A stretch of DNA of 64,000 nt from Octopus vulgaris (lineage: Eukaryota). Of the stretch, positions 3,447-54,525 are shown piece by piece; within the stretch, counting starts at the first letter, position 1; every line of letters begins with the position of its first letter. Location: the NCBI GenBank assembly GCA_951406725.2, contig OX597821.1:106578001-106642000 (forward strand), in the 5' to 3' direction. The notes under the pieces are model-generated. The model was not told the DNA's origin and made no database searches. It worked only from the letters and a program-made list of their open reading frames with translations. Position numbers and translations under genes: made by a program.

Positions 3447-3789
3447 GTAAGTATTTGGTTTTCAAATTTTCCGCTTCAGTTATATTAAATGCCTATTCGT
3501 TTAGAAACGCGGTTTAAATTCAGGTATTACTCGTCATTTGTGTTTAGTGATGTTAGTGTGAGATGTTACTGTACCTATTTAAACGCCCAACGCTTAACAA
3601 CGTATTGTTGATTGAGTAGAGCAAAAACTTGAAGTTACGTTTGAAGCTTGTTTCGAAACATAACCTCATATTATTTTGTGAATCGTAATAACACGTTCCG
3701 TGATTATTACATACTCAATATTTAGATATATACTCTAAATTCAGGTTCTTCATAGGTTCTATTTCTTCAAGAGTTTTCCATAACAAACC

Positions 3790-4080
3790 CGTGGAAAAAT
3801 ACACACGGGAAGATCCGAGCAATGGTATTGTGATATTGGTAAGGGAGATGGATGCGGGATTTGTCAGAACGCAGACCTTCGCTATTATTCGTAGAAGGGG
3901 TCAAGGGGACATATTCTGACAGTCAAGTACAAAGAAGGCCCTTTGATGAAGGCAAAGAACCTCCTGAAACTGCTGATGCACCCTGCTGAGCTGTTGATGA
4001 TATGCTTTTCCCAGATCAGAAGGATTTATGCCAAGACCTGTTAGACAAAACGCAAAGTACAAGGAGACTTGCCTACAATT
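3790..4080. repeat. Unclassified dispersed repeat, second copy at ~59360-59630
   Basis: Shared words TATTCTGACA, CCCTTTGATGAAGGC, TGCAYCCTGCTGAGC, GATATGCTT in the same order in both copies. Confidence 0.55.
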
Positions 4081-4419
4081 CTTGAAATGTCACACGTATC
4101 GTAAAGAAACAGAAACCGTGATAGTTTTTGTAAGTGCCTCCGGTGAAGATCATGTGATGATGCCCTATATATTTGAATTGGACTTAGCTTCACTTACACT
4201 GCTATGTGAAGCTGCTGGGTGGTGTGTTGATGCCTGGTCGGTGAGGGTTGCAGCTGGAATGCTATGTGTGACCACAGGTTTCTGTTCCTTACGACACCTC
4301 CACAAAGAGTTAGTGGTACGCTATTCGAGTCGCGTGTCTGAATCACATCCTTGTGTAACATGACGGATCTGTAACATGACAGATCATTCGTTTCACATTC
4401 ACCCTACATGAAGCAACGT

Positions 4420-4760
4420 AGACACACATACACACACACTTACATGCACATGCGCACACGCACGCATACTGGCTCACACATGTACACACACGCACATACA
4501 CACAAACACATACACGTACACGCACAATAATACATGCACACGCACACACTGATATGCACACCCACCCATGCACACCCACGCACACACACGCACACACATG
4601 CACACACTGACATGGACACCCACACACGCACGCACACTCTAACAGAAACGCACACGTACACACATACACGCACGAACTCGCACGCGTACTTGCACGCACA
4701 AACGTACACGCCCACGCATACAAACACATACACACACTCTCACACACTCACACACACTTA
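4420..4760. repeat. Degenerate (CA)n/(CACG)n microsatellite
   Basis: Directly visible low-complexity tract. Confidence 0.9.
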
Positions 4761-5199
4761 TATCGAGCCATATTTAGAGTGTTTAGGCCATGTTTAGAGT
4801 GTTGAAATTACGATAGCAAGATCGCGGTTTAAGTCCGTCGAAATAATGGTGACTTGCGTTCCTCACGTTAGCAGAATAAAATCATCTCACGTTGCTCTGC
4901 GATCACTTGGACACCTTACGTGTCGTACACCGTGCAACTCTTTTGACCACAATAACTAAATTATTATGCAGGTCGTTCCGCAAAAACTGAATACTCATAC
5001 GTCGTCTTCGACGGCAGACTCCCTTGTTTATATAAGTATAAATATGTGTGAACGTGTGTATTTAAGTGTGTGTGTGTGTGTGTGTGTGTGTGTGTGTGTG
5101 TGTGTGTGCATATGTGCTTATGCTTGTGTGTCGATGTATAAAGCAAAAAATATGAAGCACAAAATCACACAAAATTGATGAATAATTTCAGAAATTCGT

Positions 5200-50393: not shown

Positions 50394-51239
50394 ATGACTC
50401 CCCTTCACAAATACTAAGAGGACACAGATAGTGTGTCTATAGCCAGCTGAAGGAGATATCTTCCTGGGGCTACAAACTACAGTAGCATCCACCCTTAGGG
50501 GTTAGCCATATTCAAATAGCAAATATTCGTCACGATGTGTTACCGCTACTGTTTATAACTCGCTCTGAGATTTATCATTATAACTCGCTCTGAGATTTAT
50601 CATTATAACTCGCTCTGAGATTTATCATAGTTATATATATATATATATATATATATATATATATATATATATATATATATATATATCGAAAGTCCTTTAA
50701 CACGTTGATAAATAAATTTCCTTTTGAATTCTCCTTAAGGATATACTCAATTCACTGGTTTCGAATATGGGATTTCATTATGAAATTAAAGAAACTGGTA
50801 AGGAAATAGATTTGAGTAGGAGTTTCTTGTATGATTTTGAATGTATTTAAATAAAAATAGCAGTATGTAAATTCTTATCCATTTTCTTCATTTCGTTTAT
50901 CATAATAATAATAATAATAATAATAATAATAATAATAATAATAATAATAACAATAATAAAATGTCTCGAATGACACAACAATGATCATAACAACTGTTAT
51001 AGTTTACTCATCCATAGTCTGATATGATATGTCAGAGTAAGAATTCCTTTTTCAGATATCCCTACGAATTGATGGAGTCGCTGCTATAATCGGTTTTCCA
51101 ACGGCTTTTCTGGTGGTGGTGGTGGGGGGTTCCGGAAACGTCTCACGGAGCTCCTTCCGCAATTCCTTATGAGAAGTGCCTGATGTCGGCCATGTCTCAA
51201 TCTCATGTGTGCTGTCAAATCTGTAACGCTACTTCTAAG

Positions 51240-52110
51240 TTGTGTTTTACCTGCAGGTTCCTTTTGTTCCCCTTTCTTTTCTCTCCTTTTTTTTTGTTCT
51301 CAACAATACATAAGCATATCAAATATGAACTTACACGCATCTAGATGTAGGTAAATAATGTGTTGATTACCAACCTCAAGCCTGTTGTTAATTTGGGGTC
51401 CTGGTCTGTATATGAGTATAGCTTCCTTAATTCTTAAATTACCCAAATTGCTTTCATTTGACTCAATTGTGACTGTTATGCATTTGTCAGTGTTCCGGCA
51501 TCTGTCTAGATATTTTCTGAAGGAGGAGACTCTCGTGTTCAGATGTTGTTTGACGCGGACGTGTAACGGTCTTGTTGTGCTACACACATAGAACCTTTCC
51601 ATTTGTTACGTTGCATTCTATACACAACATTTACCCGTTGGCATAAATCTGTGTCACGGATGGGACAGTTTGTTAGTGTGCACTGATTGCTGTCTCTTAT
51701 TCGTTTCTTTGCGAGGTGTCTACTCAGAGAGAGGCCGGAGTGGGCTAGTTGTATGTCTAACCCTTATCTTCTAAAGGGTCTTCCGATTGCTATTTGTTAT
51801 CCTCTAGCTAAAATGGGATATTTTAAGGAAGCATGTGCTGCTGGTTTTTCTATCTGTTCGGCGTTTTCGTCGTCTTGGATACTTAAGCCGATTTACAATA
51901 GATCTAGGGTACCCGTTGGTTTTCAATATATCTAGGAAGCGTGTATATTTAGGAAGACAGATGATGTAGATAACAAACAAATGTATTAGTTTAACGCTCG
52001 GGAAATGAAAATGTCTTTAACGTTTCGAGCCTACACTCTTCCACAGAAAAGAACACAGAAAGAAACAACGTGAGAAAATAAAGAATGTGTAGTGGCTAGC
52101 GATCTATCAT
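51240..52110 (-). mobile_element. Penelope-like element remnant (GIY-YIG)
   Basis: FYVCSTTRPLHVRVKQHL..LRIKEAILI..PQINNRLE; adjacent hammerhead-like TTT-CTGTGGA-AGAGT GTAG GCTC-GAAA-CG-TT-AAAG on - at ~52014-52051. Confidence 0.75.
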
Positions 52111-53352
52111 GGATATATATATATATATATATATATGTACAAATATATGCATATATATATGTACATATATATATGCATATATCTGTATATATATATATAT
52201 ATATATATATATATATAAGAAAATAGTAAAGTGTGAAAAAACGACAGAAGGCTTAAATGTTAAAAAATATATATATTTGTGTCAAAATGTCTGGAGAATA
52301 TTGGAAAAATTTTTTTCCTTTCCTTAAAATCGACATAATTTTAAAATTTTTAAAGAAATTACCGGTTTCGCGTGTAGCTTTTCAAATTTCTTGTGACGTT
52401 TATATATATATATATATATATATACTGTATATATATATATAACTATATATATATATATTAAATTAGAGATAAAACCACTATTAGGCAAATCAAACATATT
52501 TAAATTAAAGTTTTAAATTTTAACTTTAATTCAAAAATTTTAACTTTAATTTTAAATATTTTGAATTTTATATTTTAAATATTTTTTATTAATTAATTTT
52601 ATTTCTATGTATTGGTTTATGATTTTCCCTGTTTGATTTGCCTAATAGTGGTTTTATCTCTAATTTAATATATATATTTATACTATAAAATTAGATTTAA
52701 TCCTAAATCTAATTTTTCCCTGTAAGTTTGGATTTACTCCCTTATATTATTATTATGTATAAATATATATACATATAGATATGCATTCGTGCAGAGCGAA
52801 AGGAAGGACAATGTTCAAACTTTAAGATGATGCGTTTGTATGTGCGCATAGTTTTCTTGGACGACACACCTTCTTTCACGTCTACGACGGACTGAAGTCC
52901 CGCCCCTTTAGGGGATATATATATATATATATATATATATATATATATATATATATATATATATATATATATATATATAAACCATGAAATTAGGAAATCG
53001 GGCATTTTCACTCGGTATGTTTGGAGAAACTTAACAACCGTTTTCATTAGCTTAAAGTAACATGGATGATTTGACATAATAAAAGCAAGCAATAACTAAC
53101 AGATAATAACGACCCCATATTCAGGTTTACTTTAGAGTAAACAGAAGTTAATAGAAAGCGATTGCATACATTGAATTTGTCACAATGAATAAAGGCGTGA
53201 TCCTTTTTAATGATAATTATGCATCCAGTCATAAGTGTTAATGAATGTAGTAGATATCTTATTCTCAAAACATTATAAAGAAGCTTACAGCCAGTGAGAG
53301 AAATTTTTTCTAATATCATACCAAGTTAGATAAGAACAAATATAAGAAACTC

Positions 53353-54405
53353 ATGGAAGCATCTAAATTGGGCCCCGAAATATCGGATTCACATTCAGTT
53401 CATATAAGAACGAGCGACAACTCTCCAAAAACCCTAAATGAGAGCCTTTTGATGGAATACCTGGAGAAACTCAGACGTCTTGCAATTGTATGTTCTATTC
53501 CTTCTAAAATGAGTTTAGAAATTTGGAAAAAATCCGTGGTGAAAACACGAATTCTGTATTTATGTCTCCCTTTAATCTATTTAATTTCAGTGTTTGATAT
53601 TTTACGTTTTATATGGTTTGTTGTAGCGAGTTATACATCAAAGAATACTGAATATATATTAGGAAAATGCTTTATGCTCTTGATGAAGATATTCCCAGGT
53701 ATATTGTCACTGCTCGTTACCTGGAAACGAACTCACACCAACGCATTAATCGATGATATTAACACTTATATTCCAATATGCCCAAGTAATGTATTAATGA
53801 AGAGGTTCCACAAATTTAGAGCATGTAAGATTTTGATCAACATATGTGCTAATTTTCTCATGTGCGCTATATTCCAAACTATTTTACCATTAATTTTAAC
53901 TGATCCAGAATATTTTTTGGAGGACTTAGCTTTTCCATTATCACGGCAGAATAGTTTTTTTGCGTTTATGCTAATAATGAATTTCTTGACAAATATATGG
54001 AATTCTATTGTTTTTCTGCCATTTGGGATATTATGCGATGCATTAACTTCAATATTCACAGAAGAATTTAAGTATTTATCGGAGTCCCTCAGAAAATCCA
54101 TAGAGGAAGATCAAGCTTCTAAAAAACAAATATTTCGGAGAAGAATAAATCTCAATAAAAAACTAAACGAAATAATTAACCACCACACTAGACTGAGCCT
54201 ATTGACGAAAGACATGAACTCGGTATTTCAGTTTTCTAATGGCCAGATTGTATTAATCTTCCTCATTATCTGCTGTATTATATCTTATGAAATAGCGAAT
54301 GGATTAGTCTACCAGAAAGGCTACGTACTACAGGTTATTACGGGAATAATGACTGCACTGTATTGTTTATATCTGATATACAGAGGACTGGTGTTTTACT
54401 CGCAG
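53353..54405 (+). CDS. Grl-like variable exon V8, TM1-TM6, subfamily B
   Basis: 351 codons, CAG|GTAAGT at 54406 (phase 0). Confidence 0.82.
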
Positions 54406-54525
54406 GTAAGTATGACGTTTGTGTATTTGTTATGAGAATATCGTTAAAAACAGAGGAGGTATTTTTCTGGTTATGTAAACTGAATGTGATTCCGATATTT
54501 ATGTTAATAATGAATTTCACGACAG

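Follow-up and report, generated by a model that had tools for sequence, protein, structure and literature searches.

Conserved splice donors of variable first exons in a predicted gustatory-receptor-like gene array of Octopus vulgaris

Layout of the locus

The window analysed here, that is, the whole stretch of 64,000 nucleotides at C8:106578001-106642000 (C8 being contig OX597821.1 of the Octopus vulgaris assembly GCA_951406725.2; positions without this prefix are counted within the window), contains six intact large exons, V1, V3, V5, V6, V7 and V8, of 349-351 codons each and all on the + strand, which we describe as variable first exons of a predicted gustatory-receptor-like (GRL) gene. Their positions, those of the splice donors which follow them, and those of a full-length pseudo-exon, V4, are given below; the shared acceptor mentioned there lies beyond the window.

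2400..3446, + strand: V1, intact variable first exon, 349 codons, predicted helices S1-S6
3447..3452, + strand: V1 donor GTAAGT, shared acceptor 148.1 kb away
15881..16933, + strand: V3, intact variable first exon, 351 codons, Pfam 7tm_6 at E 1.7e-7, above the cut-off
16934..16939, + strand: V3 donor GTAAGT
26018..27063, + strand: V4, full-length pseudo-exon, paralogue of V1, with several frameshifts
27064..27069, + strand: V4 decayed donor ATTAAT, 3 of 6 bases changed
33223..34275, + strand: V5, intact variable first exon, 351 codons
34276..34281, + strand: V5 donor GTAAGT
36307..37359, + strand: V6, intact variable first exon, 351 codons, recent tandem duplicate of V5 (protein identity 92%)
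37360..37365, + strand: V6 donor GTAAGT
44651..45703, + strand: V7, intact variable first exon, 96.6% identity to residues 1-352 of O. sinensis XP_036361414.1
45704..45709, + strand: V7 donor GTAAGT
53353..54405, + strand: V8, intact variable first exon, 351 codons
54406..54411, + strand: V8 donor GTAAGT, shared acceptor 97.1 kb away

V1 is only distantly related to the other intact window exons (protein identity 32-34%). Exons of the array were matched to O. sinensis proteins, at 95-98% identity, and to one O. vulgaris protein, at 98%.

Donor conservation and read-through tails

A preliminary description of this locus had stated that GTAAGT sits at one codon boundary in the six intact copies, the distant V1 included, that the open reading frame (ORF) runs on for about 8 to 26 codons past this donor, and that the donor of V4 has decayed. 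The alignment confirms all of this: GTAAGT occupies an identical column in the six exons, in phase 0 of the ORF, the read-through tails measure 13, 8, 9, 9, 26 and 9 codons in V1, V3, V5, V6, V7 and V8, and V4 reads ATTAAT at 27064. Taken alone, six copies of GTAAGT are weak evidence, because the copies are related and because the + strand of the window carries this hexamer 25 times. It is the wider cluster which settles the question.

The region analysed (C8:106098001-107362000, 1.264 Mb, no N) contains 63 near-full-length first exons, 62 of them with a start methionine. At the donor column, 51 of these 63 exons have GTAAGT and 62 have GT, while one has GC. The mean pairwise identity (1953 pairs, which are not independent) is 0.94 over donor positions +1 to +6; from +7 to +36 it is 0.37, 0.39 and 0.40 at the first, second and third codon positions, and over the last 10 codons of the exon 0.50, 0.69 and 0.46. 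If the hexamer were a coding Val-Ser pair, it should vary synonymously; instead, its first codon is GTA in 58 of the 63 exons, when only 373 of the 1062 valine codons in the exons are (35%), and its second codon is AGT in 56 of the 63, against 291 of 1629 serine codons (18%), both far above exon usage. The tails range over the 63 exons from 3 to 119 codons with a median of 16, the median for random sequence being 13. The polyadenylation signal AATAAA is found within 300 nt past the donor in none of the six window exons and in 9 of the 63 overall (background 27%).

These results support the conclusion that the GTAAGT sites are real splice donors under selection, and that the tails are intron sequence. 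The earlier suggestion that selection acts on the donor and not on the tail is thus borne out by the contrast between an identity of 0.94 in the former and of 0.37-0.40 in the latter. The warning that single-ORF calls would mis-annotate these genes was also well founded: three database proteins (P0002, P0004 and P0005, from unannotated contigs) end in such tails. At C8:106546300, the donor is of the GC type, GCAAGT at the homologous column, and an O. bimaculoides model (P0009) splices at the same boundary.

The loss of the donor in V4, which had been put forward as a further argument for selection, turns out to carry little weight. V4 is 75% identical to V1, with identities of 0.747, 0.769 and 0.735 at the three codon positions, that is without any codon pattern, and it has several frameshifts. 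Because V4 decayed evenly along the whole exon, a change in its GT has an expected probability of 0.28-0.58 at 15-35% neutral divergence; the probability that at least 3 of the 6 donor bases change is 0.05-0.35 over the same range. Moreover, among the 22 broken or partial first exons of the region which keep their 3' end, 19 have an in-frame GT(A/G)AGT and 2 a frame-shifted GTAA nearby, and the donor is fully lost only in V4. The decay of the V4 donor fits relaxed selection, yet as a single event it proves little. We rejected donor loss as a marker of pseudo-exons, 19 of the 22 broken exons having an in-frame donor.

Shared end exons

The acceptor for the window donors, which the preliminary description left unnamed, lies outside the window and is common to all copies. 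The O. sinensis protein XP_036361414.1 (P0001, 421 residues), which consists of a V7 orthologue and of the shared end, runs parallel to V7, with 96.6% identity, as far as the donor column, and goes on for another 70 residues which are absent from the window. These last 70 residues map to three exons, all beyond the window:

C8:106729547-106729615: C2, 23 codons, AG/GT ends
C8:106731161-106731250: C3, 30 codons, AG/GT ends
C8:106734684-106734737: C4, 17 codons and stop, seventh transmembrane helix (TM7), with TYSIVAYQT

The exon order is V, C2, C3, C4, with every junction in phase 0. No end exon was found in the window, either by enumeration of candidate exons (21071, 10967 and 30863 AG..GT or AG..stop candidates for the three end exons, the best 40 of each being considered) or by profile searches. 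The DNA profiles of C2, C3 and C4 have no match, even at E<=10, over the 169 kb between C8:106560600 and 106729500, and the enumeration agrees, with no end exon between the last exon of the previous module (106560596) and 106729547. This interval before C2 holds 12 near-full-length first exons (six in the window and six downstream), as well as broken ones, for one end set. All 12 have an ATG and a GT donor. They form one clade, with a Shimodaira-Hasegawa-like approximate likelihood ratio test (SH-aLRT) support of 100, in a quick tree of the 63 near-full-length exons, built from octopus exons only and leaving the broken ones aside, as expected from tandem duplication before one end set. The window donors are 97.1-148.1 kb away from the shared acceptor.

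A transcript contig of 153 nt (depth 7.4) covers C2, skips the 1545-nt intron between C2 and C3 at GT..AG and enters C3 without mismatch. It comes from one run, X11, of the four examined at C2-C3; that this run is RNA is a guess, and its tissue is not on record. In the other three runs, X1, X5 and X9, these end exons are not covered. Of the 25 nt of its loose end before C2, the last 23 are those which end the first exon with donor at C8:106653600, and the outermost two differ; this 23-mer occurs once in the genome. The corresponding splice bridges 75.9 kb and passes over five other first exons. In the O. sinensis gene LOC118764605, the first exon of model X1 is the V7 orthologue and that of model X2 the orthologue of C8:106572551, the last 70 residues being identical in both, and the O. 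bimaculoides model XP_052825885.1 joins the orthologue of C8:106572551 to the same end. Junctions are hence documented for three exons of the module: V7 and C8:106572551, both through gene models, and C8:106653600, through the transcript; use of the V7 donor is indicated by database gene models. Models of other modules also skip exons, six in P0007 and one in P0011. From all this, we regard the splicing of the first exons of this module to shared end exons as highly probable.

The exon at C8:106572551-106573542, which is used in the models of two species, is frameshifted in the present assembly and open in O. sinensis (95-97% identity). This is either a recent loss or an assembly error.

Protein family and predicted fold

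Both full-length models which we compared with Pfam pass the cut-off: P0001 reaches 33.8 bits for 7tm_7 (cut-off 26.6), and P0003 35.1 for 7tm_7 and 36.5 for 7tm_6. When the first exons are taken alone, V3 passes and the other five intact window exons fail. A structure model of P0001, computed from a 45-sequence alignment (predicted local distance difference test (pLDDT) 82, predicted template modelling score (pTM) 0.79), is almost wholly helical. It ends with two short helices, 369-392 and 399-420, consistent with a split S7a/S7b, and the junction between the variable and the shared part falls at residue 351, late in the helix which precedes this pair. Six matches of this model in the Protein Data Bank (PDB) reach E<=0.001, and all of them belong to structures of insect odorant receptors (OR) or of OR-Orco complexes, as single chains; they are followed by Orco, MhOR5, Gr43a, Gr64a and BmGr9, with TM-scores mostly of 0.5-0.65; a sequence search of P0001 against the PDB gave no match.

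The C4 exon fits the TM7 motif (T/S)Yhhhhh(Q/K/E)(F/L/M) at three positions out of four, as T, Y and Q are kept and the last position is T; this motif is diagnostic of GRLs but variable (PMC7746228; here and below, papers are cited for the accessible parts of their text). Three 3' phase-0 introns are typical of gustatory receptors (GR; PMC9998090). According to these models, the window exons encode helices S1-S6 of GRL proteins, i.e. of seven-transmembrane ion channels (7TMIC). In the known OR and GR structures, the ligand pocket is built by S1-S6, and S7 supplies the pore together with a large share of the assembly surface.

By analogy with these families, whose channels are tetrameric and have an intracellular N-terminus, octopus GRLs would be ligand-gated cation channels for chemical sensing, a role towards which we lean with some reserve. 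The same gene structure could also encode proteins with another function, be it developmental, in the gut, thermal or related to light, and this has a real if smaller chance of being true: the chemosensory roles of the GRLs of Nematostella and Trichoplax await confirmation, and in the fly some GRs act in other senses (PMC5850775, PMC6307266), and the tissue of run X11, as said, does not help. It is countered by the fast birth and death of first exons before a constant end, in which the octopus array resembles insect chemoreceptors (PMC2204066, PMC6175461), an argument by analogy only.

Proposed mechanism and alternatives

The best explanation of this locus, and in our opinion a probable one, is that the 12 variable first exons, each with its own promoter, belong to one GRL gene with one set of three shared end exons. 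The layout, the fit of the exons in phase 0, the fold prediction and a single junction of a sister exon were all established above; promoter choice, with one promoter per first exon, is inferred and we hold it to be probable too, if slightly less so. Each first exon would be transcribed from its own promoter, transcription would run through all the downstream first exons, and the first donor of the transcript would join the acceptor of C2, the downstream first exons being skipped as intron. The products would be predicted seven-helix channel subunits which differ in their ligand pocket and have a common pore helix. New receptors would arise by tandem duplication of a first exon with its promoter and its donor; judging from the OR and GR structures, this would vary the specificity and keep the channel. 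The scarcity of polyadenylation signals past the donors would fit a need not to terminate too soon within an intron of such length.

Some 500 nt of sequence before the ATG have been duplicated together with the exon and are conserved among five paralogues. Every ATG is preceded by an in-frame stop, 1-38 codons upstream. A palindromic site, which we take to be forkhead-like, is found in 4 of the 63, all close paralogues of the window module, roughly 200-235 nt before the ATG, and probably reflects shared descent. Its window copies are:

32989-33006: palindromic forkhead-like site
36073-36090: palindromic forkhead-like site
53125-53142: palindromic forkhead-like site

Several observations weigh against the explanation by promoter choice and shared end exons. 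The 63 exons as a whole share no promoter motif, nor do most of them share any 8-mer; a motif of the forkhead type occurs in 36 of the 63, against a background of 55%. The sole transcript junction, from a single contig, belongs to a sister exon which lies outside the window and not to any of the six window donors, and the O. sinensis and O. bimaculoides gene models are predictions. The Foldseek E-values for P0001 are modest, the best one being 7.9e-5. Of the 66 pairs within the module, 37 were set aside as saturated; in the remaining 29, with dS<1.2, the dN/dS ratio (nonsynonymous to synonymous divergence) is 0.37-0.77, which is fairly high, so that some exons may be drifting. Lastly, in the six window copies alone, the identity from +7 to +36 is codon-like, 0.70, 0.68 and 0.51 at the three codon positions (15 dependent pairs); this pattern vanishes over the 63 exons.

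One may imagine a single upstream promoter with a leader exon, the large exons being mutually exclusive cassettes as in Dscam, with the same shared end exons. Gr39a is described as a case of mutually exclusive splicing in the paper devoted to it (PMC2204066), and in V3, V5 and V6 a pyrimidine-rich stretch ending in AG precedes the ATG by about 50-55 nt. In V7 and V8, however, this stretch is deleted, and the 500 nt which were duplicated with the exon and conserved in five paralogues are what one expects of a travelling promoter. We find cassettes unlikely, and still more so a second alternative in which few exons are used, most copies, several of the window included, being orphaned duplicates whose donors stay intact through slow decay. 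In keeping with the latter, the 22 broken exons also mostly keep their donor, dN/dS goes up to 0.77 and junctions are documented for no more than three exons of the module. Yet six frames of 349-351 codons have stayed open at dS values from 0.06 to more than 1, none of the 29 pairs reaching a dN/dS of 1, and V4 shows what real decay looks like; furthermore, the farthest exon (156 kb, from models) and a middle one (from the transcript) are both used, which means that distance is no bar. That the exons are independent single-exon genes, read through the donor into a short tail and polyadenylated nearby, is largely refuted, since the start and the stop 8-26 codons past the donor in every ORF and the slight codon-like pattern of the six window tails are outweighed by the random-like tail lengths, the GTA and AGT usage, the scarcity of AATAAA, the existence of a spliced junction, and the fact that the product would lack its two C-terminal helices.

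The whole cluster

When each first exon is grouped with the end set that follows it on its strand, the result is modules of 20, 12 (the one discussed so far), 7, 6, 4, 3, 2, 2 and 2 near-full-length first exons, five modules of one exon each and three whose exons are all broken; the region contains 17 end sets and 17 C3 exons. Nine of the modules, those which have at least two first exons, lie together within about 1 Mb. The largest module (C8:106971181-107239821, minus strand) has 20 near-full-length and 11 broken exons for one end set, at distances of up to 266 kb. The 6-exon module includes one orphan exon 525 kb away: at C8:106755497-106756495 lies an intact + strand exon with a donor, for which there is no + strand end set over 525 kb, across an inverted minus-strand array. 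This exon groups with those at 107.25-107.28 Mb, and is either a relic of an inversion or a case of very long splicing.

At C8:106802134-106974032, on the minus strand, one finds eight near-identical end sets in repeats of roughly 20-31 kb, which means that whole modules are duplicated too. The end set at 106.80 Mb has no C3 match, and many first exons of this array are frameshifted; the array is either a recent duplication of modules or the result of assembly trouble.

With the cuttlefish protein P0010, we found a second cluster 82 Mb from the main one, at C8:24490491-24550580 on the minus strand (200 kb examined), where 6 first exons precede one set of three end exons and have their donors at the same place, GTATGT in five and GTACGT in one. 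As genome searches score only the best candidates, further clusters may exist.

The remaining traces of first exons in the window are the following.

10560..11339, + strand: V2, broken exon, internal stop at 10998-11000; the 3' part and the donor are absent, with a repeat instead
35206..35289, + strand: 3' remnant, 78 nt (26 codons), of a V exon, with intact donor GTAAGT at 35284, the seventh such donor of the window
55716..56053, + strand: internal fragment of a further V exon, frameshifted and devoid of donor

The remnant at 35206-35289 is what an internal deletion spared of a tandem duplicate. Because its GTAAGT is kept and an AG lies 72 nt upstream, it could serve as a small in-frame cassette or as a decoy donor. 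Between the V exons there are self-inverted repeats at 42403-44120 (1.7 kb, 95%) and 54572-55726 (1.2 kb, 74%), perhaps non-autonomous DNA transposons. There are also long ORFs at 60495-63194 (899 residues), which by eye resembles the endonuclease and reverse transcriptase of a long interspersed nuclear element, and at 29135-31192, presumably an RTE-like element.

Significance

It is likely that these arrays encode a large set of ion channels, predicted to be chemosensory and as yet without a name. We found no account of an octopus GR-like repertoire, or of the present design outside insects, in the literature within reach, from which subscription journals are largely missing, so that one may be in print. 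In the accessible text, neither "octopus" nor "cephalopod" occurs in two 7TMIC surveys (10.1101/2023.08.30.555482, PMC9998090), nor "octopus" in PMC5850775, nor "gustatory" in two cephalopod genome papers (10.1101/2023.05.16.540928, PMC9068888). Reviews (PMC12635824, PMC11526382) and a survey of lophotrochozoan G-protein-coupled receptors (GPCR; PMC11886862) name chemotactile receptors (CR) for cephalopods, the survey using "gustatory receptors" once, in a general sense. As far as these texts go, chemical sensing in the octopus has been discussed in terms of chemotactile receptors, ionotropic receptors and GPCRs. Databases already list some of the isoforms, mostly as "uncharacterized" and two of them as "Gustatory receptor". 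Because the end exons are up to hundreds of kilobases off, and because only one of the six intact window exons passes the Pfam cut-off by itself, the arrays shrink in automatic annotation to a handful of "uncharacterized" loci or to truncated ORFs; this would account for the family having been overlooked.

More tentatively, and with a chance well below even, one could see here an unrecognised ionotropic chemoreceptor system of the octopus: some 70 GRL channels, with a promoter choice of the protocadherin type over 100-270 kb, independent of that of insects, where cells of the suckers or of the olfactory organ would pick one or few exons and where siblings of one module would form mixed tetramers through their shared pore and assembly exons. 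If this is true, these roughly 70 channels would outnumber the known octopus chemotactile receptors. In any case, the locus gives a list which can be cloned, namely 63 and 6 near-full-length first exons with shared ends.

Comparison with known systems

The variable-first-exon layout is the design of insect Gr39a and Gr214, hence a known mechanism and not a new one. In Drosophila, Gr39a has large exons for six transmembrane helices, each with a GT donor from which it is spliced to three small exons, common to all, which encode TM7 and the C-terminus; exons are gained and lost, pseudo-exons occur, and D. melanogaster has four large exons (PMC2204066). The octopus gene has the same design as Gr39a (and as Gr28b and Gr23a), with 12 large exons, and 20 in a neighbouring module. 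It differs by its introns, 97-148 kb from the window donors and up to 266 kb in the neighbour, and by being in a mollusc and not in an insect. The scale is also matched in insects, as Tribolium Gr214 splices 30 long first exons (PMC6307266), and Blattella Gr60a-m 13 of them (PMC6175461), into three shared final exons. What sets the octopus apart from these two is the presence of nine multi-exon modules in about 1 Mb, the duplication of whole modules and the second cluster 82 Mb away.

With animal GRLs and 7TMICs at large, the octopus proteins have in common the Pfam 7tm_7 domain, the OR/GR fold, the TM7 motif at three positions out of four and the three 3' phase-0 introns (PMC7746228, PMC9998090). 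GRLs are known in Mollusca (PMC7746228), and the non-arthropod sets reported in the texts considered here are small, with 3 in Trichoplax and 4 in Nematostella (PMC5850775).

Outside this family, the clustered protocadherins of vertebrates also place many first exons on shared final exons, the proteins being unrelated to octopus GRLs. So does UGT1A, where many first exons are spliced onto shared final exons. The protocadherins of cephalopods are described as lacking multiple first exons on shared final exons (PMC9068888); cephalopods thus do use, in their GRL genes, the variable and constant exon design which their protocadherins lack. The chemotactile receptors, of which O. bimaculoides has 26, are like the octopus GRLs candidate ionotropic receptors, clustered and expanded within the lineage (PMC11526382, PMC9068888); they are derivatives of pentameric acetylcholine receptors with a function that has been shown, whereas the octopus GRLs are predicted 7TMICs known from their sequence.

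The Gr39a and Gr214 design is hence extended from insects to a mollusc, and the question of whether it is ancestral or convergent becomes testable: it was either inherited from the protostome ancestor, or it arose again on the same ancestral introns.

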